Shown here: positions 21,892 through 44,560 of the stretch, piece after piece
Layout of the letters: the number at the start of each line of letters is the position of its first letter
How positions within the stretch are numbered: position 1 is the first letter of the stretch
Assembly (NCBI GenBank): GCA_965247095.1
Contig: OZ251997.1
Span: 1,024,001 to 1,088,000, forward strand
Direction of reading: 5' to 3'
Length of the DNA stretch: 64,000 nucleotides
DNA from: Candidatus Multivorans sp.
Lineage (GTDB): Bacteria > Acidobacteriota > Thermoanaerobaculia > Multivoradales > Multivoraceae
The notes under the pieces: generated by a model
The model's input: the letters and a program-made list of their open reading frames with translations, nothing else
The model's database searches: none
What the model was told of the DNA's origin: nothing
Made by a program: the position numbers and the translations under genes

Positions 21892-21898
21892 TTGCGGG

Positions 21899-22090
21899 CC
21901 GGCACCTCGTGCCGGATGCGGGCGAAACGCCCGCGTGCCATCCGTGCGCCCGATGACGGGCGCACGGAGTGGTTCGCGTGTGGCGCGGGTCGCGCCACAC
22001 GGGTTCCCAGGGCGGACCGAAGTAGCGACCACGCTCCTACAGTGTTCCCTGCGCGACAGCGCAGCGGACCCCGCTGTGGATACTCCTAGA
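21899..22090. repeat. Array of GC-rich hairpins / REP-like units plus an IS110-end-like motif between convergent genes
   Basis: Perfect stems at 21899-21915, 21918-21934, 21941-21968 and 21977-22001. 22044-22084 nearly equals 34932-34971. Confidence 0.75.
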
Positions 22091-29800: not shown

Positions 29801-32800
29801 GTGGGTGCGGCGAGATCCCGCGGACCCCTGCCCAGCCTGCGGCACTACTGGCGCTCGAACGTCGCCGTGATGCTGACCGCGGCGGTGGCGGCGTCCGTTC
29901 TCACCGGCGCGCTGATCGTAGGCGACTCGGTCCGCGGCAGCCTGCGCGACCTGACCCTGGACCGTCTTGGCGGCATCGATCATGCGCTGCTCGGCGCGGG
30001 CTTTTTCCGCGAGGGGTTGCGGGATGAGCTGATGAATGACGCCGAGTTTGCCGCGCGCTACGGCCCGGTGTCGGCGGCGATCGTGATGCAGGGCAGCGTG
30101 GTGCAGCCGGAGAGCGGCCGGCGGGCGGCCCGGGTCAATGTCCAGGGCATCGACGACGGCTTCGCCGCCTTCTTCCCGGGCATGGAGGAAGCCCTCGACC
30201 TGTCCCGGCGGGACGGTCAACTGTTCGCGTCGCTGGCGATCAACCGGTCGCTTGCCTCAGCGCTCGCCGTTGAGCCGGGCGACTCCGTCGTGCTCTACCT
30301 GGAGCGGCCGAGCGAAGCACCGCGGGCAAGCCTGATGGGCGAGAGAGACCCCGCCGACCAGTTGGAGAGCGTCCGGCTGAGCGTGGTCTCGGTGCTGGAG
30401 GACGAAGGTCCGGGCCGCTTCCAGCTCGCCCCGCACCAGAGCCAGCCTCTCGTCGGCTATCTCAGCCTGCGCGACCTGCAGCGGGAGCTTGATCGCCGGA
30501 ACCTGGTGAACTCGCTGCTGGTCGGTGAGCGGGCGGATGGCGATACCGGGGCGCCCTCCGATCCCGACGCCGCGGCAGCCGAGGTCGAACGCCTCATCCG
30601 TCGCCACGCCGAGGTGGCCGACTTCGGACTCAGGCTCGCGGCGACGGACGAGCATCTCCTGGTCACCACATCCCAGATCATTCTCGGCGCCGAGTTGGCA
30701 GGGGAGGTCGACGCCGCGGCGTCGGAGCGCGGCGCGGAGACGATGGAGATCTCGACCTACCTGGCCAACCGATCGGCCGCCGAGAATGGCGCCGCCGCTC
30801 CCTATTCGACGATCGCGGCGCTGAATGTGGCGCGGGCGGGTGAACTGGGGACCCTGCGACTGACGGACGGCCGGCCGGCACCGGCTCTGGGGCCGGGTGA
30901 GGTCCTGGTCAACTCGTTCCTGGCCGAGGATCTGGCGGTCGCGGCCGGCGACCGCCTGGCGATCGACTACTTCCAGCTCGGCGACCGGGAGCAGTTGCTC
31001 GAGCAGACCGCCTGGACCACAGTGGCGGGGGTGGTCGAGATGACGGGTTGGGGGGCCGACCGGACGTTGACGCCGGATTTCCCGGGGGTCGCCGACGCGG
31101 ACAACATGAGCGACTGGGATCCGACCTTCCCGGTCGACCTGAGTCGAATCCGGGACCTGGACGAGGCCTACTGGGACGAGTACCGCGCCACTCCCAAGCT
31201 GTTTGTCAGCCTCGACTACGGCGCTGAACTCTGGTCGAGCCGTTTCGGTCTTCTGACCTCGCTGCGGCTGCTGCCGCCGGCCGGCACAACACCCGAGCAG
31301 CTCCAGGCAACGCTCGAGGAGGTGTTGCCGGACAGGATCGCCCTCCACGCGGCTGGCCTCGCGGTCGAGCCGGTCAAAGCCACGGGCTTGCGCGGCGCTT
31401 CGGGCGCCACGGACTTCGGCGGCCTCTTCGTGGGCTTCAGCCTGTTTCTCATCGTGTCGGCGGCGCTCCTGGTGGGGCTCTTCTTTCGGCTGGGGACGGA
31501 GAGCCGCGCGAGCGAAATGGGCCTGCTGCTGGCACTCGGCTACGGCATAAAACGCGTCCGGCGCCGGTTCCTGGCCGAGGGAGCGCTGCTGGGCGGTGTG
31601 GGTGTGCTGCTCGGCCTCGGAGGCGCGGTGCTCTACGCCGGTGCGATGATGGCCGCGCTCAGGACCCTGTGGCGATCCGCGGTCGGCTCGAGCCACCTGT
31701 ATCTGCACGTCGAGCCCCTGACCCTGGCCATGGGCGGCGCGGCGTCCGTTCTGGTCGTGCTGTTCGCGATCCGGGGCGCGGTGGGCCGGCTTGCCGCCGT
31801 TTCACCGATCCGGCTGCTGCGCGGCGAGACCTCCGACCAGCCGTCAGCCGCCGGGATGCCGGGCCGGCGCGCGCGCTGGACCGCGAGCGTGGGCGGCGGG
31901 CTGGCTGCGGTTCTGCTCGGTGGCTCCGCGGTGGCGCCGGCGTCCACTGCGGCCTACCTGTTCTTCGGCGGCGGGGCCTGTCTCCTGATCGCCGGGCTGG
32001 CGGGGTTCACTCTGTGGCTGCGGCGGCGCCCGGCAGCGCCGCTCGAGAGCTGGTCGCTGCGCGCCGGTTCGCGGATGGCGGCGGCGAACGCTTCTCTCAA
32101 CCCGGGCCGGAGCCTGCTCTGCGCGGCGCTGGTGGCCAGCGCGTCGTTCGTGATCGTGGCGGTGGGCGCCTACGGCCTGCGCTTCGGCGAGGAAACGCGG
32201 GACCTGGACTCGGGGGCCGGCGGCTTCGACCTGGTCGCGGAGGCGGATGTCTCGATTCTCGCCGACCTGAGCAGCGTGGACGGTCGTTTCGATTTGGGTT
32301 TCGGGGAAGAGGCCTCCGAGCTCATCGGACAAAGCCAGATCGTCGCCTTCCGCACCGTGCCCGGGGACGACATCAGTTGCCTGAACCTGTTCCAGCCGGA
32401 GCGTCCACGGCTGCTCGGAGCGCCGCCGGAACTGATCGAGCGCGGCGGCTTCCGCTTCCAGTCGCTCGTAGATGAGGCCGGGGAGGATCCCTGGAGGCTG
32501 CTGGAGCAGGATCTCGGTCCGGGAGTCATCCCCGCGATCGGCGACTTCAACTCGGTCATGTGGATTCTGCACTCGGGCCTGGGCCAGGGGATCGAAATCG
32601 AGACGGAGCGCGGCGAGACGGTCGAACTGCGGCTGGTCGGGCTCCTGCGAAAGAGCGTGTTCCAGAGCGAACTCGTGATCTCGGGAGCGAACCTAGCGAA
32701 GCACTTCCCGAGCCGGACCGGCGCCTCCTACTTCCTGTTGCGGACACCGCCCGGCGAGCAGGACCGCACGATGCAGGAGCTCGAGCGAACGCTGGGCGGC

Positions 32801-33241
32801 TTCGGCTTCGATGCGGTCCCCACGGCCCAACGGTTGCAGGCCTTCCAGGCGGTGGAGAACACCTATCTCGGCACGTTCCAGACCCTGGGCGGACTCGGCC
32901 TCCTGCTCGGCACGCTGGGACTGGCGGTCGTCCTGCTCCGGAACCTGCTGGAGCGCCGGGGAGAACTTGCCACCCTGCAGGCGATCGGCTTCTGGCGGCG
33001 GGCCCTCGCCTGGCTCGTTGTGGCCGAGAACGGGCTCGTCCTGACCGCGGGCGTAGCCGTCGGCGCCGCGTCGGCGCTGGTCGCGGTGAGCCCGCACCTG
33101 CTCGGCGGACACGCACTCGTGCCGTGGCTCTCCCTCGGCCTGACTCTGGTTCTGGTGATGGCCGCTGGAACCCTGGCCAGCCTGGCCGCGGTTCGTCGGG
33201 TGACGCGGGAGGAGCTGTTGCCTGCGCTCCGGGGGAGCTAG
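29801..33241 (+). CDS. Large FtsX/MacB-like ABC permease (duplicated permease with large periplasmic domains)
   Basis: Two R..E.g.L.ALG repeats with TM clusters and two large soluble domains. 1146 aa. Confidence 0.88.
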   Translation: MGAARSRGPLPSLRHYWRSNVAVMLTAAVAASVLTGALIVGDSVRGSLRDLTLDRLGGIDHALLGAGFFREGLRDELMNDAEFAARYGPVSAAIVMQGSVVQPESGRRAARVNVQGIDDGFAAFFPGMEEALDLSRRDGQLFASLAINRSLASALAVEPGDSVVLYLERPSEAPRASLMGERDPADQLESVRLSVVSVLEDEGPGRFQLAPHQSQPLVGYLSLRDLQRELDRRNLVNSLLVGERADGDTGAPSDPDAAAAEVERLIRRHAEVADFGLRLAATDEHLLVTTSQIILGAELAGEVDAAASERGAETMEISTYLANRSAAENGAAAPYSTIAALNVARAGELGTLRLTDGRPAPALGPGEVLVNSFLAEDLAVAAGDRLAIDYFQLGDREQLLEQTAWTTVAGVVEMTGWGADRTLTPDFPGVADADNMSDWDPTFPVDLSRIRDLDEAYWDEYRATPKLFVSLDYGAELWSSRFGLLTSLRLLPPAGTTPEQLQATLEEVLPDRIALHAAGLAVEPVKATGLRGASGATDFGGLFVGFSLFLIVSAALLVGLFFRLGTESRASEMGLLLALGYGIKRVRRRFLAEGALLGGVGVLLGLGGAVLYAGAMMAALRTLWRSAVGSSHLYLHVEPLTLAMGGAASVLVVLFAIRGAVGRLAAVSPIRLLRGETSDQPSAAGMPGRRARWTASVGGGLAAVLLGGSAVAPASTAAYLFFGGGACLLIAGLAGFTLWLRRRPAAPLESWSLRAGSRMAAANASLNPGRSLLCAALVASASFVIVAVGAYGLRFGEETRDLDSGAGGFDLVAEADVSILADLSSVDGRFDLGFGEEASELIGQSQIVAFRTVPGDDISCLNLFQPERPRLLGAPPELIERGGFRFQSLVDEAGEDPWRLLEQDLGPGVIPAIGDFNSVMWILHSGLGQGIEIETERGETVELRLVGLLRKSVFQSELVISGANLAKHFPSRTGASYFLLRTPPGEQDRTMQELERTLGGFGFDAVPTAQRLQAFQAVENTYLGTFQTLGGLGLLLGTLGLAVVLLRNLLERRGELATLQAIGFWRRALAWLVVAENGLVLTAGVAVGAASALVAVSPHLLGGHALVPWLSLGLTLVLVMAAGTLASLAAVRRVTREELLPALRGS

Positions 33242-33323
33242 CGCGGCAGTATCGTCGCCGCTTCGCGGCGCGTTTCTTCTCGGAAGCCGGCGGGGACGCC
33301 GGCGCACCCAGTTTCTGCCGCGC
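33241..33323. repeat. Inverted-repeat-bounded hairpin containing a REP-like unit, immediately left of IS110
   Basis: GCGCGGCAG (33241-33249) and CTGCCGCGC (33315-33323) enclose GCCGGCGGGGACGCCGGCGCACCCAG. Confidence 0.55.
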
Positions 33324-33380
33324 AGGCTTGCATGGAACAAAGTAGCGAAACGGCGGTGGTTCAAGAGGATGCGGGGGTTT

Positions 33381-34700
33381 TCATGCGGCTTGTTCAACGG
33401 CCACGAGCTTCAGGTTGAGGCGTCTGGCCTGTCGCTGGAGGTTCTTGAGTTGGCGTTCGCGCCGGACGGCCTCCATTTCGGCGAGGTCGCGTTCGACGTA
33501 CTCTTCGCCGTGAGTGAGCATGGCGAAGATCGTGCGGCCGAGCTGGTGGGCGGTTGCCTTGACCGCCCTCGCGGTGTCCATGCGGTGCATTCGGCGTCGG
33601 TGGGATGCGCCGATGGCGGTCTTGCTGTTGCGGGCGGTGGTTGCGGCCATTCGCAGCGCCTGGCCGACCCGGTTGGTGTGTTGTCTGGGCTTGCCTTTGA
33701 GGCGTTTGTCGCCGCTGATGTTGGTCGGCGGAGCCAGACACAGCCACGAGCAGAAGTTGCCCTGCGAGGGAAACCGGGACAGGTCCGGGCCGATCTCAGC
33801 GGCAAACGTCAGCGCCGTTTCGACGCCAATGGTCGGGATGGCGACCAGGTCCACTCCGAGCATGCGGTGCAGCCGCTGGCGCAGGGCGTGCTCGCGGACC
33901 TTCGAGTCCGGCGGCGAAGCCTCCCCTGCGCCGTCCTCAGCCAGCTTGTCGAGTTCGGCGTCGATGCGCTCCTCGCACATCTCGATCTGGCCCTGCAGCA
34001 TGTCGTGGCGCGCCAGCGCCTGCCTGAGGGCGAACAGATGCTCGTCGCGCCAATTGCCCTCGAGACTCGCTGCGATCGTCGCCGCGCTCGCCTTGCACCG
34101 GCCGTCACGGTGGCGGGCCAGCACCTCGCCGTCCCGCTCGCCGGCGACGATCGCGCGCACGATGAGCTGGCCGGTCTTGCCCATGATGTCGCTGAGCACG
34201 TTGTCCAACTGCACGTTCATCTGCAGGAGCGCCTTCTGAACGTGCTGCACCGAACGGCTGCGGTCGCGGATCAACTGCCCGCGCTGACGCGTATAGGAAC
34301 GCAGCGGGCACAGCGCGTCCGGCGCACGAAACGCGCTCCGCAGCAACCCGTAGCTCATCAACTGCCGGATCCACTGACAGTCCAACACGTCGCTCTTGCG
34401 ACCGCTCACCTGCTTCGTCGCCTTCGGATTCACCAGGTAGACCTCGAAACCCGCTCGGTCGAGCACCTCGAACACCGGGATCCAGTACACGCCCGTGGAC
34501 TCCAACGCCACCTGCCGCACGCCGTGCGCCTCAAGCCACGACGCCATCGCCTCAAGATCGCATGTGAACGACCCGAAGCTGCACACCGGGCGCTCGAAAC
34601 GCGACGGGGCCACCGCCACGTAGTGCTTGCGCTTGCCCACGTCGATCCCCGCACAATCCGGGTGAACGACCTCCAGACTCTCCGCCTTCCTGCTCGCCAT
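33381..34700 (-). CDS. IS110 family DEDD transposase/recombinase
   Basis: AGIDVGK, ALESTGVYW and RKSDVLD (DEDD), plus C-terminal SWLCLAP..NISG with the conserved Ser. AGGAGG RBS before the ATG at 34700. Confidence 0.95.
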   Translation of the reverse strand: MASRKAESLEVVHPDCAGIDVGKRKHYVAVAPSRFERPVCSFGSFTCDLEAMASWLEAHGVRQVALESTGVYWIPVFEVLDRAGFEVYLVNPKATKQVSGRKSDVLDCQWIRQLMSYGLLRSAFRAPDALCPLRSYTRQRGQLIRDRSRSVQHVQKALLQMNVQLDNVLSDIMGKTGQLIVRAIVAGERDGEVLARHRDGRCKASAATIAASLEGNWRDEHLFALRQALARHDMLQGQIEMCEERIDAELDKLAEDGAGEASPPDSKVREHALRQRLHRMLGVDLVAIPTIGVETALTFAAEIGPDLSRFPSQGNFCSWLCLAPPTNISGDKRLKGKPRQHTNRVGQALRMAATTARNSKTAIGASHRRRMHRMDTARAVKATAHQLGRTIFAMLTHGEEYVERDLAEMEAVRRERQLKNLQRQARRLNLKLVAVEQAA

Positions 34701-34727
34701 CTCCAGCACCTCCTGTACCATTCAAAT

Positions 34728-34890
34728 GGTCGCGCTGGACAGAGACCGCGGCGGAAACGTCACTCTTGCATACGGGGTCGCGGCAAAAGCCGCGCCGCCA
34801 GCGTCAGAACGCCGATCACGGTCCGGGCCAAACTTGCATTGCGGGTGCGAACACACCAGTGCTTCGACGGCCTCGCTGCCCAGCGCGACC
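34728..34890 (-). ncRNA. Putative IS110 bridge RNA
   Basis: An 11-bp perfect closing stem (34728-34738 / 34880-34890) encloses two internal stem-loops. Each contains CTTGCAT (34765-34771 and 34833-34839), the same heptamer found at both IS junctions. Confidence 0.65.
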
Positions 34891-34971
34891 CAACTCTACG
34901 CCTCCTGCAACGACCGCAGAATCCACCACCCGTTCCCTGCGCGACAGCGCAGCGATACCGCTGTGGGTACT

Positions 34972-35066
34972 TGCATGGAACAAGCCCCTGGGAACGCGGG
35001 CATCCTGCCCGCATCCGGACGCCGCGTCGTTCCCTGCGCGCCAGCGCAGCGACCTCGCTGTCCCTA
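34972..35066. mobile_element. Putative non-autonomous IS110-derived mini-element A (95 bp) carrying a REP hairpin
   Basis: Flanked by CT (34970-71, 35067-68). It starts with the IS right-end motif TGCATGGAACAA and ends with a copy of the IS left-end motif GTTCCCTGCGCG.CAGCGCAGCGA...CGCTGT...TA. Confidence 0.55.
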
Positions 35067-35068
35067 CT

Positions 35069-35125
35069 TGCATGGAACAAGCCCTGGTCCCTGTGCGTCA
35101 GCGCGGCACGGACGCCGCGACTCGA
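35069..35125. mobile_element. Putative non-autonomous mini-element B (57 bp)
   Basis: 53/57 identical to the reverse complement of 44484-44540. Both copies start CT|TGCATGGAACAAGCC and are followed, after a 2-nt core, by CCTAG. Confidence 0.6.
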
Positions 35126-35190
35126 CACCTAGCCCGCATATTTTCCGGACGGTCTGGTCGGGGTCGGCCTGAGGGGTGAAGCGCAGCGCT

Positions 35191-38100
35191 TCACTCCACG
35201 TCGAAGTGGATCACTTCGGTGAAGTCGTGCTGCACGAAGTTGTGGGCCCGGTCGTAGAGCGTCATGTCCGAAACACCCCAGATCCCCGGCGGCGAGCCCG
35301 GCGGCAGGACATGCACCACCAAGTGCTCCTTCCACTCGTCGGGATCATCCTGTGGAAAAACTGAACCTCCCTCGTCATCAGAGGTGTAGACGAGGTGGGT
35401 GATGCCCTGTGGATCGAGAAACTTGATTGCTCCGAAGGTGTAGCCCGAGATGTTGTCGCGGATGCGAAGGCTCAACCTGACGATCGTCTCACCATACGGT
35501 TTATCGATGTTCGTGGGCTCCGCGTCGACCCTTAGCCTGTTCAAGTCGAGCTCAGGCGCCTCGGTGTCCGGGTTGGCAGTGTCGAGTCGGATGCGTTGAG
35601 GCGCTTCGTCCCGTGCCTCCTCGGTGAACCTGGCGGGAGTCCAATTGCCGGCCCGATCACTCATATGAATGAAGTTCAGGGAGTAGGTCGAAGACGGCAT
35701 GTAGTCCGGCATGATAAAGACCACTTCGCACAGCTTCTCGGCAGGTCGAAAGTCACCGTACGCATTCAGCCGATACGTGGTGGCAATCTCGTCGTTGATG
35801 GCGGCCCAGCATGCGTTGTTCTCCAGCATCGCGTTGCTTTCGTCCACCTGCCAACGCGCCTCGATCGACTGAACAACCCGGCCCTCTCGCACCTCCTGGC
35901 CCTTGCTCAACTGCGCCGATCCGGGAACATACTCAGGAGCCGTCCAGTCCTCGAGGGGGTTTTCCAAATACAGTTTCCAGCCGAAATCGTCACCCCTCTC
36001 GAATCGCTCATTGCCGACCCGGTCGGCAATGACGAGCTGCGTTGGAAGCCAGTATCCCGCCTTGCTGTACTTGCTCAGCGTCTCCGTGCCTACAAGGATG
36101 GTGCTCGCTTCGACCGGGTTGCCGTTCTCGTCTACAGAACCGAGATCCAGGTCAAAATACCTACCGATACTGCTGTTCACCCGCGTGCTTGCAGAGGCGG
36201 CGCCCTCGAGAACCCGGTCGAGGGCATGCAACTCGATTACAATGCGGAATTCCTTGTCCTCCTGAGGTCCGCCCGTCACGGTGATGTCCACCCGACGAAC
36301 CTTGCCGGGAAACACGTAGTCCGGAAACAAGTTATAGACCGGAAACGTCAAGTCCTCCCGGATCTGCGTGAGGTACAGATTCCCCTGCATGATCCGGTCC
36401 CGCACGAACTCGTACTTGGCAACGGATCGGGACCTCAGCTTGTCCGGCTCGATGATGAAGTACGAGATGGTCTCGGCCATGTCCTCGTTGGGGTTTTTCT
36501 GGTGCCCGTAGGCCGAAACGAACTCCGTCTGCTTGGTAGTGGACCAGCCCGAGGGGCTCTCCGGATCCTGATACCAGCCGCCAAGTTCTATCCAGTCGTC
36601 CAAGGTCGGTTGGTCGAAAACATGAGCCCAGAGGAAGTGCGCTTTCTCGTGGATCACCAGGCGTTGGACGTGGTCGACGTCACGCGAAAGGAAGGCTCTG
36701 TCCATGAACTCGATGTAGCCCGCGTCCGGCCAGGCGACGGCTGGGGCCGCCGGGTACAGGGGATGAGGCGTGCCGTCGAGGCGCGCCGGATGACGTGCCT
36801 GAGGCCCTGCGTCTTGTGCATGCCGCTTGGAAACTCCTCAAGCATGTTGAGCAAGGTGATGATCTCCTCGGCGTGGAAGCGCTGGAAACGGCCCGCACCT
36901 TCGTTGCCGGTCGGCCACGTCAGGCCTGCGTAGTCGGTTACCTCCGTCGTGACGCCGTACCGTTCCCGGAAGATCCTCTCGTAGGCGACTCGGTCACGGC
37001 CGTTGTCCGTCAAGTAGCGCACGACAGCGTGGTGCAGTCGTTGCGAGAACCAGGTTCCCCGCTTGCCGTCCACGGTCACCACGCGTGGATTGGCATTGAC
37101 GAAGGCGGCTTCGGAGATGAAGACGGTGGGGGAACCCCGGTGCGTCCCGATCTGGATGTCGCCGTGAATGAAGCTGGGCGTCAGAAGCCACTGAGAAGGG
37201 ACCAGAGACTGTTTGCCGTATGGGTTCCTTAGGTCCTGCGGGATGGAACGCATGGTCGTCAGCAGCCGCCAAGCGTGTTCCTGCGACCAGGAAGCGTCGT
37301 CGGAATCCACAAGCAGGAGGTTGTAGTCATACGCCAGGATGTTCGCGGACGAGTTGTCGGCCACCCGGACCGTCTCACCCTCGAACTCGACCTCGAGCGG
37401 TCTGTTCACGGCCGCCGAGTACTCGGTGCCGGCGGTGCTCTGATCCTCTTCCCAGTGGAAGACGAACGGGTCCGAAGGAATCGGCGTCAGGTCGAACGGT
37501 TCGACGAGGCCCGTATGCGGAAGCTCGATCAGCCGTGCGGGCGTGGCGCGATAGCCCTCGGCGCGCGCTTTGACGGCGTACTTGCCGGCGGCGAGGTCGT
37601 GGAATCCGAACCAGCCGGAGGCGTTCGGGTTCGTGACCTGGAGAACGCCCTTGGCGGTAAGCAGTACTTCGACATCCTCGTAGGCGCCGAGATAGCCGAT
37701 GACCTGGCCCTCGAACGAGTGTTCTCCTTTGACAGGGTCATCGTCGGCACAAGCGAACGCCTCGAGGTCGCTCGTCGCCGCGGCGGTCTGGTTGAAGCGG
37801 TTCGTGTGCGTCCAGGGGACGTCGCCGCCGGGGGACTCGATCGAGAGGTTGAACGCGAGGGTCGTCACCGGCCCGACGAACACCCAACGGTGGCCGTTCA
37901 CGGCACACCCGTCGAGCACCTTGATCAGCACCTCCGCATTGTCGCGATGGAAGAAGTACAGGATGGCGGATTGCTCGGAGTTCAGACCGTAGTCCCGCAC
38001 CTCCTCAAGCACCGATTCGCCCTCTCTGACGTGTTCGACCCACATGTTGACCGTGAAGCCCGGTCGCCGTATCGTCGACGCGCAAGTTAAACGCCAGCGT

Positions 38101-43839: not shown

Positions 43840-44480
43840 ACGAAACAAGGATTGGCGGCGAGTCGTCCCTGCACCCAGAGGACGATGGCTTGCCAGCACA
43901 CAAACCGGCCGTCCGGGGCTCGGCCAGTGGCCCGGTCGATGGCCCCGAGGACGGTCAACTCGTTCGCCGTGCCGCGGCCGGCGACCGGGATGCGTTCGAA
44001 ACCCTCGTCGTGCGCTACGAGACGCCCCTGCGCAAGCTGGTCTACGGCTATGTGCTCGACTGGGAGGTCGCCGAGGACGTGGCTCAGGATGCCTTCCTGC
44101 TGGCCTTCAGGAAGCTCGACCGGTTGGACGAGCCCGCGGCCTTCAAGAGCTGGCTCTACCGGATCGCAATCAACCGGGCTCACGACGAGCTGCGGCGCAA
44201 GTCCCGCTGGGGACGCCGGCTGGACCGCAACGTGGATGACGAGGCGCTTGCCGAACTGCCGGCGGCCGGCGCCGAGTCCGCGGTGGAGTCGCGGCTCCTG
44301 CGCCGTGCTCTGGTGCGGGCGCTGGCCGAACTGCCGAAAAGCCAGCGCACGGCGGTGGTGCTGAAGGACCTGGTGGGGATGAAGTACGTCGAGATTGCGG
44401 AGCTCCTGGACTGTCCGATCGGGACAGCGCAGATCCGGGTGCATCGGGGCCGCCGCCAGTTGCGGCGTCGGCTCGGCTAG
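43836..44480 (+). CDS. ECF (RpoE-like) sigma-70 factor
   Basis: AEDVAQDAF, FKSWLYRIAIN and region 4 YVEIAELLDCPIGT. Confidence 0.92.
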   Translation: MNETRIGGESSLHPEDDGLPAHKPAVRGSASGPVDGPEDGQLVRRAAAGDRDAFETLVVRYETPLRKLVYGYVLDWEVAEDVAQDAFLLAFRKLDRLDEPAAFKSWLYRIAINRAHDELRRKSRWGRRLDRNVDDEALAELPAAGAESAVESRLLRRALVRALAELPKSQRTAVVLKDLVGMKYVEIAELLDCPIGTAQIRVHRGRRQLRRRLG

Positions 44481-44483
44481 GAG

Positions 44484-44540
44484 TCGAGTCGCGGCGTCCG
44501 CGCCGCGCTGACGCACAGGAAACATGGCTTGTTCCATGCA
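44484..44540. mobile_element. Second copy of mini-element B, inverted, just after the sigma-factor stop codon
   Basis: Flanked by AG (44482-83, 44541-42), which is CT on the minus strand. 53/57 identity to 35069-35125. Confidence 0.6.
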
Positions 44541-44560
44541 AGGATTGGAAAGGAGAAACG

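Follow-up and report, generated by a model that had tools for sequence, protein, structure and literature searches.

In this study we analysed a tandem train of units at positions 33327 to 35132 of a 64,000-nucleotide stretch of Candidatus Multivorans sp. DNA (contig OZ251997.1, positions 1,024,001 to 1,088,000), which is called the window below. The results indicate, with good probability, that the train consists of a bridge-RNA-guided insertion sequence (IS) of the IS110 family and two non-autonomous derivatives of the same family, units A′ and B, with all three inserted head-to-tail in one copy of a palindromic intergenic repeat of the genome, termed U. What sets the locus apart is that the target word of its IS is the same as the donor word. 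The anatomy of the train, a census of its unit families, empty and filled sites, covariation of RNA guide words with the flanks of related elements, and one contig with an empty site were all observed, and are presented first.

Anatomy of the train and census of its unit families

The train is marked by an exact 14-mer, CTTGCATGGAACAA, which was found on the + strand at 33327, 34970 and 35067, as an earlier sequence-only reading of the window had reported, and once more on the − strand at 44529, a copy missed by that reading. These four occurrences compare with 0.19 expected by chance, and none of 100 shuffles reached four. The copies divide the train in three, again as had been claimed: the IS (33327-34969; 1643 bp, or CT plus 1641 bp, with its body at 33329..34969 on the − strand), unit A′ (34970..35066, − strand; 97 bp, or CT plus 95 bp), and unit B (35067..35125, − strand; 59 bp, or CT plus 57 bp). 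On the + strand every unit has the plan CT, the end word TGCATGGAACAA, cargo and a terminal hairpin, with both ends derived from the IS and a middle that is a REP (repetitive extragenic palindromic) hairpin in A, A′ and C and is lacking in B. This 12-nt end word (33329..33340, + strand) is common to the IS and to units A, A′, B, C and C2, and at the outer junction it is preceded by the CT core (33327..33328, + strand). The left half of the target (33296..33326, + strand) is a degenerate arm of U (...TTCTGCCGCGCAGG), which resembles the 3′ arm of that repeat and is joined directly to 35067 in the sequencing run X10 described below. The right half of the presumed ancestral target (35126..35132, + strand) reads CA-CCTAG, with a degenerate core CA where the genome consensus is CT-CCTAG, so the bounding by CT asserted in the sequence-only reading fails at this one edge of B; in contigs of four runs most of the depth has T at position 35127, but these depths sum repeat copies.

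The IS encodes a recombinase of 446 aa (33381..34721, − strand) with a DEDD/RuvC-like N-terminal domain and a Tnp C-terminal domain (PF01548, E 5.3e-25; PF02371, E 2.7e-12). Its only relative of solved structure in the PDB is the IS621 transposase (E 1.6e-8), and its true start is likely the ATG at 34700. About 250 bases upstream of the gene (34722-34969) and about 50 downstream are non-coding. The two ends of the IS, TGCATGGAACAA.. and ..GCTGTGGGTA, form no terminal inverted repeats, and the junctions share only the 2-nt CT core. Insertion is sequence-specific, since all copies in the genome of the window and in one genome of the same genus lie at CT-TGCAT or CT-CCTAG repeat sites. With its DEDD and Tnp domains, its 2-nt core and its site-specific insertion, the element is a member of the IS110 family. 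A second copy, at genome positions 4033447-4035089, is 99.4% identical over 1590 bp; the recombinase reading frame is open in both copies, which differ at 4 of 446 residues, the first ATG being lost in copy 2. The two copies diverge in a stretch of 53 bp that separates the stop codon from the end word (window 33329-33380, genome 4033449-4033500); one of these replaced 53-bp tails is like the tail of a 95%-identical copy from the same genus, and the other like that of an 83%-identical type.

At its bridge-RNA end, the IS carries a 38-bp terminal hairpin module (34932..34969, − strand; GTTCCCTGCGCGACAGCGCAGCGATACCGCTGTGGGTA on the + strand), the start of which is GTTCCCTGCGCG.CAGCGCAGCG, proposed as a search word in the sequence-only reading. 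Unit A′ has the make-up that was attributed to it there. It starts, after CT, with the same 12-14 nt as the IS end adjoining the transposase stop, holds in its middle, as cargo, a copy of the commonest REP hairpin of the genome, and ends (..GCTGTCCCTA) with a variant terminal hairpin that is a near-copy of the 38-bp module (31 of 38 positions identical by an eye count). Unit B is made of CT, the end word and a short variant of the terminal hairpin (...GACGCCGCGACTCGA). The terminal word is ..GTCCCTA in A′, an ending shared with a unit of genome G016 (L004/L020), as against ..GTGGGTA in the resident IS, and ..ACTCGA in B.

A search of the whole genome with tabulation of flanks, as the sequence-only reading had suggested, was carried out on the single contig of 4.62 Mb (67.7% G+C), and gave 28 exact copies of the 14-mer, the unit families B, A, C and C2, and their CT bounds. 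BLAST revealed two further loci of unit A (97 bp), which are 100% identical, and five copies of unit C (144 bp) at four loci, which are 99.3-100% identical and form a C-C tandem at one locus. Unit B gave 32 hits, 24 of them near full length, at 92-100% identity, and B-B tandems with a period of 59 were found at two loci. C2 (~207 bp), which has an extra 46-bp hairpin relative to C, is represented by one entire copy (genome 1283547-1283743) and one truncated copy (window 21897-22084). Nine elements of the genome end in ..GCTGTGGGTA (two IS, two A and five C copies); they share an identical 38-bp module, and all nine abut CT-TGCATGGAACAA, the start of another unit. Elements ending in ..GCTGTGGATA abut CT-CCTAG instead (3/3), as do 18 B ends in the genome (CTCCTAG), and every train that holds an IS, A or C ends with a B (7/7). 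Seven arrays have their starts at genome positions 496037, 1057327, 2636671, 3172992, 3258418, 3612064 and 4033303.

The bounds of the units were defined by comparing empty with filled copies of U, a 53-bp palindromic repeat with 16 BLAST hits in the genome; several trains start right after a copy of it. Thirteen of the 16 copies are unoccupied, four having the exact GCGCACG-CT-CCTAG and the others CTCATAG, CTCTTAG and similar words, while the three occupied copies carry B, A+B and C+C+B between two CTs, followed by CCTAG. In filled sites, CT stands on each side of every unit. The comparison showed that each unit is a body plus one CT and that B is an insertion, not a target, in agreement with the CT-delimited units of the sequence-only reading.

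The units are 59-207 bp long, non-coding, and combine the 12-nt end word with the 38-bp hairpin module of the IS. Like MITEs (miniature inverted-repeat transposable elements), they are short non-coding sequences with IS ends and occur as dispersed near-identical copies; since they have no inverted termini or target duplication of fixed length, and only the CT core, they are termed 'MITE-like', as for MITEPpu9 (see below). The earlier view of A and B as IS110-type MITEs stands in so far as both IS termini and dispersed near-identical copies were found, but the terminal word of A′ is not that of the resident IS. A and C are likely dependants of the IS, because all of their 38 terminal bases match it. 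A′ (..GTCCCTA, as in the G016 unit) and B (..ACTCGA) look, from their endings, like products of other or earlier IS variants, and B appears to belong to an older family that entered CT-CCTAG sites.

Units of this kind extend beyond the genome of the window. B-like units are present in many genomes of the genus, and mini-units of the same build were found in other genomes of the genus, among them an A-like unit directly in a CT-CCTAG site, a ~95-bp mini-unit in CT-GCTAGG sites, and in genome G019 a 57-bp unit with the terminal hairpin (..GCGGACG end) of the IS type of genome G024. With the recombinase as query, no relative of it was found at E 1e-10 in four of the five mini-unit genomes searched (G016, G013, G007 and G023, which are 94-98% complete). 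In L067, L084 and L056/L063, the sequence directly past the IS end is the start of the same or a similar element, and head-to-tail adjacency is therefore common in this IS clade.

Fold and guide words of the predicted bridge RNA

In the predicted bridge RNA (34728..34890, − strand), a basal stem closes off two internal loops, both of which carry a distal hairpin. RNAalifold analysis of the upstream ends of 22 non-identical relatives gave 35 pairs, 15 of them with compensatory changes, and two pseudo-symmetric loops. This comparative folding was used instead of a single-sequence fold of the non-coding end, which was uninformative (z = −1.6). An Rfam search found no family at threshold; gntR-DTE was dismissed, with 22 bits against a cut-off of 63.6 and a position on the opposite strand.

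On the 3′ side of the first loop lies a putative target guide, AUGCAAG (34833..34839, − strand), which is complementary to CT-TGCAT on the + strand. A putative donor guide of the same sequence lies on the 3′ side of the second loop (34765..34771, − strand), complementary to CT-TGCAT as the IS's own end by the recombinase stop. In each loop, the 7-nt word would pair with CT and the next five bases. The first-loop word differs between IS types, and the flanks track it. Genome G024, of the same genus, holds many copies of an 83%-identical IS with CUAGGAG in the alignment column where both IS copies of the window's genome have AUGCAAG. Each of the G024-type copies (7 fetched, 15 listed) has [variable flank]-CT on one side and CT-CCTAG on the other, B being absent from the bridge-RNA end, whereas the flank in the window's genome is CT-TGCAT. 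Thus the target word CUAGGAG would direct insertion of such relatives into CT-CCTAG sites. The second-loop word is AUGCAAG in both types, and in the window IS the target guide is identical to its own donor guide.

This correspondence was examined more widely with 77 related loci drawn from the genome collection. Among 78 loci examined, both words were found by pattern in 60, and 59 were left after identical rows had been dropped. The target guide equalled the flank at the expected distance in 52 of the 59 loci, with 14 different words, compared with 78/2190 (3.6%) in a control in which a word was paired with loci having another word. For the donor guide, identity with the terminal 7 nt of the IS end was found in 48 of the 59 loci, with nine different words (control 108/1898, 5.7%). 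Kin among these loci are non-independent, and the number of different words is the fairer measure. An upstream RNA with two loops, whose words covary with the target flank and with the donor end, is what would be expected of a bridge RNA.

A probable guide for the other half of the target was located on the 5′ side of the first loop (34858..34868, − strand; GUCGAAGCACU). In three IS lineages the first-loop 5′ words GCGCAGGC, CGCGGGC and UUCAGGC track the flanks GCGCAGN|C, GCGCGGG|C and TTTNRG|C, respectively. In the second loop, the 5′ side (UUCUGACGCU) fails to track the donor end. ACGCU, considered as a guide for the right target half, was dropped, as it is nearly invariant across relatives with different flanks. 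In L065, L068, L078 and L096, the first-loop words equal the ends of other elements of the clade, with flanks such as tgttccATGAAAG, and in L067, as in the window IS, the two words are equal.

The 5′ side of the second loop (34800-34809, − strand; UGACGC) also resembles the loop of the terminal hairpin at 34932-34969 (GCUGUCGCGC), and in a divergent clade (L098, L102-L104) UUCAC stands in both places, as against GACGC. As a weak lead, this likeness may bear on why the mini-units keep ~38-42 bp of that end.

The window IS resembles the IS621/IS110 bridge recombinases (PMC11208160, PMC11208158) in its DEDD and Tnp domains, in the lack of inverted termini, in the CT core at both junctions, in a non-coding RNA upstream of the recombinase gene whose two pseudo-symmetric loops match target and donor, and in a target within a palindromic intergenic repeat. 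In the accessible part of its description, IS621 has guides of 9 nt and 8 nt on the 5′ side of the loops and a 3′-side guide of 4 nt. The pairing of the 3′-side word of the window IS with CT and the following bases has the geometry of the IS621 right guides. Compared with the four-guide layout of IS621, there is support in the window IS for both 3′-side words and for the first-loop 5′ word, and the second donor half is unmatched. The arrangement looks as though the gene module had been inverted relative to the ends. Another difference is that the target and donor 3′-side words are identical in the window IS, whereas the published model has no recreation of the target on insertion.

Proposed growth of the train and competing explanations

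The identity of the two guides suggests how such a train may be built. With AUGCAAG now as its target word, the window IS would recognise [flank]-CT-TGCAT, which is the outer junction of any resident element of the family. Because the target guide equals the donor guide, the IS would insert beside the ends of its own family, and after each insertion the outer junction would again read [flank]-CT-TGCAT, so the site would be recreated and the train would grow at its outer, low-coordinate end. The claim of the sequence-only reading that every insertion regenerates a target would follow from this identity. The inner junctions, [own terminal hairpin]-CT-TGCAT, would have the circle-junction sequence; target and donor sites would flank the units in direct order, and the units could leave precisely. 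At 59-144 nt, the units lack the length needed for a double-stranded circle, which makes a single-strand transposition intermediate likely. Comparison of the copies also suggests that A and C may be mobilised by this recombinase, and both the insertion order and excision are proposed on the same grounds. More tentatively, and at somewhat less than an even chance, we propose that the target word was rewritten to equal the donor word, which would have made the IS and its 59-144-nt derivatives a self-renewing RNA-guided attachment site and created an integron-like train built stepwise by a DEDD recombinase.

A possible route to such rewriting is suggested by L100 (520-640). In comparison with the near-identical L058 and L064, an 88-bp stretch resembling a mini-unit stands exactly inside the CTAGG|AG word of its bridge-RNA gene. 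This stretch comprises a hairpin plus GCTGACGCGCAAGGAAG and ends TTCCATGCA; the word ahead of UUUGG becomes ..CCAUGCAAG, and the insertion leaves ..CCATGCAAG-UUUGG, a context as in the window IS (CAAUGCAAG-UUUGG). Guide-coding DNA thus seems to act as a target in L100. Guide-coding DNA mimics the target, and our hypothesis is that an insertion there, with most of the inserted DNA lost afterwards, would put the element's own end in place of the former guide.

Public sequencing runs were examined as assembled contigs. The form with the IS is present in runs of the probable source sample. In run X10, which belongs to a different study, a contig of 3348 nt differs from the right flank at 6 of 534 positions and has its letters 1-31 on 33296-33326 and letter 32 on 35067; the 1740 bp of IS and A′ are absent, and the 14-mer fits both sides. 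This contig represents, in a close relative, the site in its empty form, with the break at the CT/14-mer boundary. The sequence-only reading had called for empty sites with precise loss between CT cores, and the paralogous empty U sites and the X10 contig without IS and A′ provide them in part, whereas presence or absence of one short unit by itself at an orthologous locus was not observed. Uncovered stretches, summed depths and joints with a side under 30 letters, such as the one from 33308 to 35080 in X6 and X8, were left aside. Ahead of the right-flank contig of run X1 stands ..ACTCG-A, like another B end; this has 30 letters and was not built on. A metagenome scan with a 25-nt junction word gave no matches, and one with a 16-nt word gave 117 stretches, which are taken as chance matches, with element context in 0 of the 80 fetched (L121-L200).

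Several observations weigh against the interpretation of the train as a bridge-RNA-guided IS with its derivatives. The first-loop 5′ word of the window IS matches its actual outer flanks at 3-4 of 6 positions, and no guide for the second donor half (..GTGGGTA-CT; ..GGGUACU or equivalents expected) was seen by eye in any alignment column. In contrast to IS621, the 7-nt words that covary strongly are the 3′-side words of the two loops, and the strand that bears the CT core is the one opposite to the recombinase gene, so that guides can be mapped onto the IS621 model by analogy. The terminal words of A′ and B differ from that of the resident IS, which may be unable to move them. In the X10 contig the IS and A′ are gone together, and the left side has 31 letters, the minimum countable, in a degenerate repeat arm. 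The runs, seen as assembled contigs, gave no direct sign of movement. At the window locus, other species of the genus have a different left neighbour, no repeat and a different synteny, which makes that comparison uninformative. Finally, the tandem C-C and B-B pairs could also be explained by unequal crossing-over.

This last point belongs to the alternative that survives best, although we consider it unlikely: the train may have arisen by local duplication, through slippage or unequal crossing-over at the 14-52-bp repeats or through the one-sided 'half-match' tandem duplication known from IS110 loci, with the dispersed copies being old. The C-C and B-B pairs of the genome are indeed identical or nearly so, and tandem cargo repeats were obtained in 3 of 96 colonies of an IS110 assay (10.1101/2025.10.25.684509). 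However, the neighbours in the window train are three different elements (IS, A′ and B) and not mutual copies, identical A or C units lie at two and four unlinked loci, always with the same kind of junction, and every unit has both end words, not one.

Slightly less credible still, and very improbable in our view, is the explanation that the units are host repeats, of the REP or bacterial interspersed mosaic element (BIME) kind, spread by a REP-associated tyrosine transposase (RAYT) or by replication, on which the IS merely lands, the ends being alike because the IS has taken up a piece of its target. A and C have the common REP hairpin of the genome as their middle, and most BLAST hits of these units cover the REP part only (~140/153 for A as query, ~106/120 for C). 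The genome has a single Y1_Tnp (RAYT-like) gene (2898256-2898492), which is flanked by copies of the REP carried by A and C (region 2898100-2900532), and IS110-family elements are known to target REPs, according to the reference list of PMC11208160 and the accessible part of PMC12288879. Yet the REP hairpin forms only the middle of a unit, both ends of which are IS termini. Solitary REP copies are without the 14-mer and the 38-bp module. The unit ends covary with the IS lineage, ..GCGGACG going with the same-genus type (the G019 57-bp unit) and ..GTGGGTA with the window IS, and the unit boundaries fall exactly on the CT core specified by the bridge-RNA words. Because the single Y1 gene sits among REPs and the REP is only the middle of a unit, the REP system is a separate matter and in the units merely cargo. 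The sequence-only reading had named ordinary REP/BIME targets as a finding that would speak against it; that description fits the cargo hairpin only, the units themselves being defined by IS ends and the CT core.

Decay in place, by which full IS copies would have been shortened by internal deletion and never have been mobile when short, is the least probable of all. In its favour, the units retain only IS ends, a truncated relic lies in the window (21897-22084) and a same-genus 95%-identical IS copy is without its bridge-RNA end (L030/L002). Against it, the same internal junction and REP cargo recur in five C copies (4 loci) and two A copies (2 loci) at 99-100% identity, which independent deletions would not give, and the cargo is not IS sequence. 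In that same-genus copy (94-95% identical to the window IS), the whole bridge-RNA end is lost, and the upstream sequence is unrelated from ~40 bp ahead of the start codon.

Related systems, implications and other units in the window

The closest described case to the bridge-RNA-guided IS and its short partners is MITEPpu9/ssr9 with ISPpu9 in Pseudomonas putida (Pares-Guillen et al. 2025, PMC12288879), and with it the remark of the sequence-only reading that MITEs of IS110 elements are poorly described no longer holds. In the part of that article that was accessible, MITEPpu9 is a non-coding module that has copies of the IS end boxes on both sides; it stands directly next to the IS and also by itself elsewhere, is duplicated in tandem in some strains, and is proposed to use an IS110-family transposase in trans. 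It holds a small RNA gene and goes with a single IS, whereas here several families of 59-207 bp, with or without REP cargo, occur genus-wide; the same part of the article does not explain the adjacency by identical target and donor guides. A 2026 preprint (10.64898/2026.08.14.744561), as far as it was accessible, describes tandem non-coding units beside IS110 genes, with donor-end words at their boundaries and stepwise growth in place. Its survey has mostly one-sided (LD-only) matches, whereas here the units bear both ends and the guide identity would predict regeneration. The accessible portions of two preprints deal with single-strand circles, copy-out and donor-arm excision, and the 59-144-nt units fit such circles and copy-out. 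In the full-text literature searched (few subscription journals, no supplements), we found no equal target and donor guides, self-renewing site or targeting of own ends for IS110, and no genus-wide families of 59-207-bp IS110 units.

The comparison with integrons, made in the sequence-only reading, holds as an analogy. Integron arrays likewise have a fixed outer site, a recombination site borne by each unit, a head-to-tail order and possible loss of units as circles, so the likeness lies in the logic of stepwise growth. In contrast to integrons, the train has no tyrosine integrase, folded attI/attC sites, promoter-cassette logic or genes in its units, which are non-coding, and recognition would be by RNA; the open reading frame list of 31500-37000 held no tyrosine integrase, attI or attC cassettes. 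The intergenic mosaics of Neisseria (dRS3 and RS) are another array of short units, in which 50-150-bp units are set apart by a constant short repeat used by an IS110-family Piv-like recombinase. The dRS3 repeats are inverted repeats, unlike the ends of the window units, and to our knowledge the RS units do not carry IS ends.

Bridge recombinases are under development as programmable tools for genome writing, while debate continues on their life cycle in nature: whether they cut or copy, whether a double or a single strand is involved, and how excision sites are found. The locus provides a clean natural example of short non-autonomous partners in several families, and the minimal cis needs can be read from the units: one end takes 12 nt, and the other ~38-42 nt that include a hairpin. 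The equal target and donor words would predict full-match insertion and excision sites together with a self-renewing site, contrary to the current literature. The locus also offers a possible natural route of guide reprogramming. If they are truly mobile, units of 59 nt would be natural evidence for single-strand transposition intermediates. For genome annotation, a genus-wide class of intergenic repeats would be explained.

Two more units lie elsewhere in the window. The first is a solitary B unit in the opposite orientation (44477..44542, + strand), which reads CTAGG-AG-[57 bp]-AG; it adjoins the TAG stop of the gene upstream, a codon contained in the target word CTAGGAG. The same position against a gene end is found for many B and U copies. 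The second is the truncated C2-type unit (21897..22084, + strand), which is without the TGCATGGAACAA end, terminates in ..GCTGTGGATA-CT-CCTAG, and starts directly after the TGA stop of a gene.

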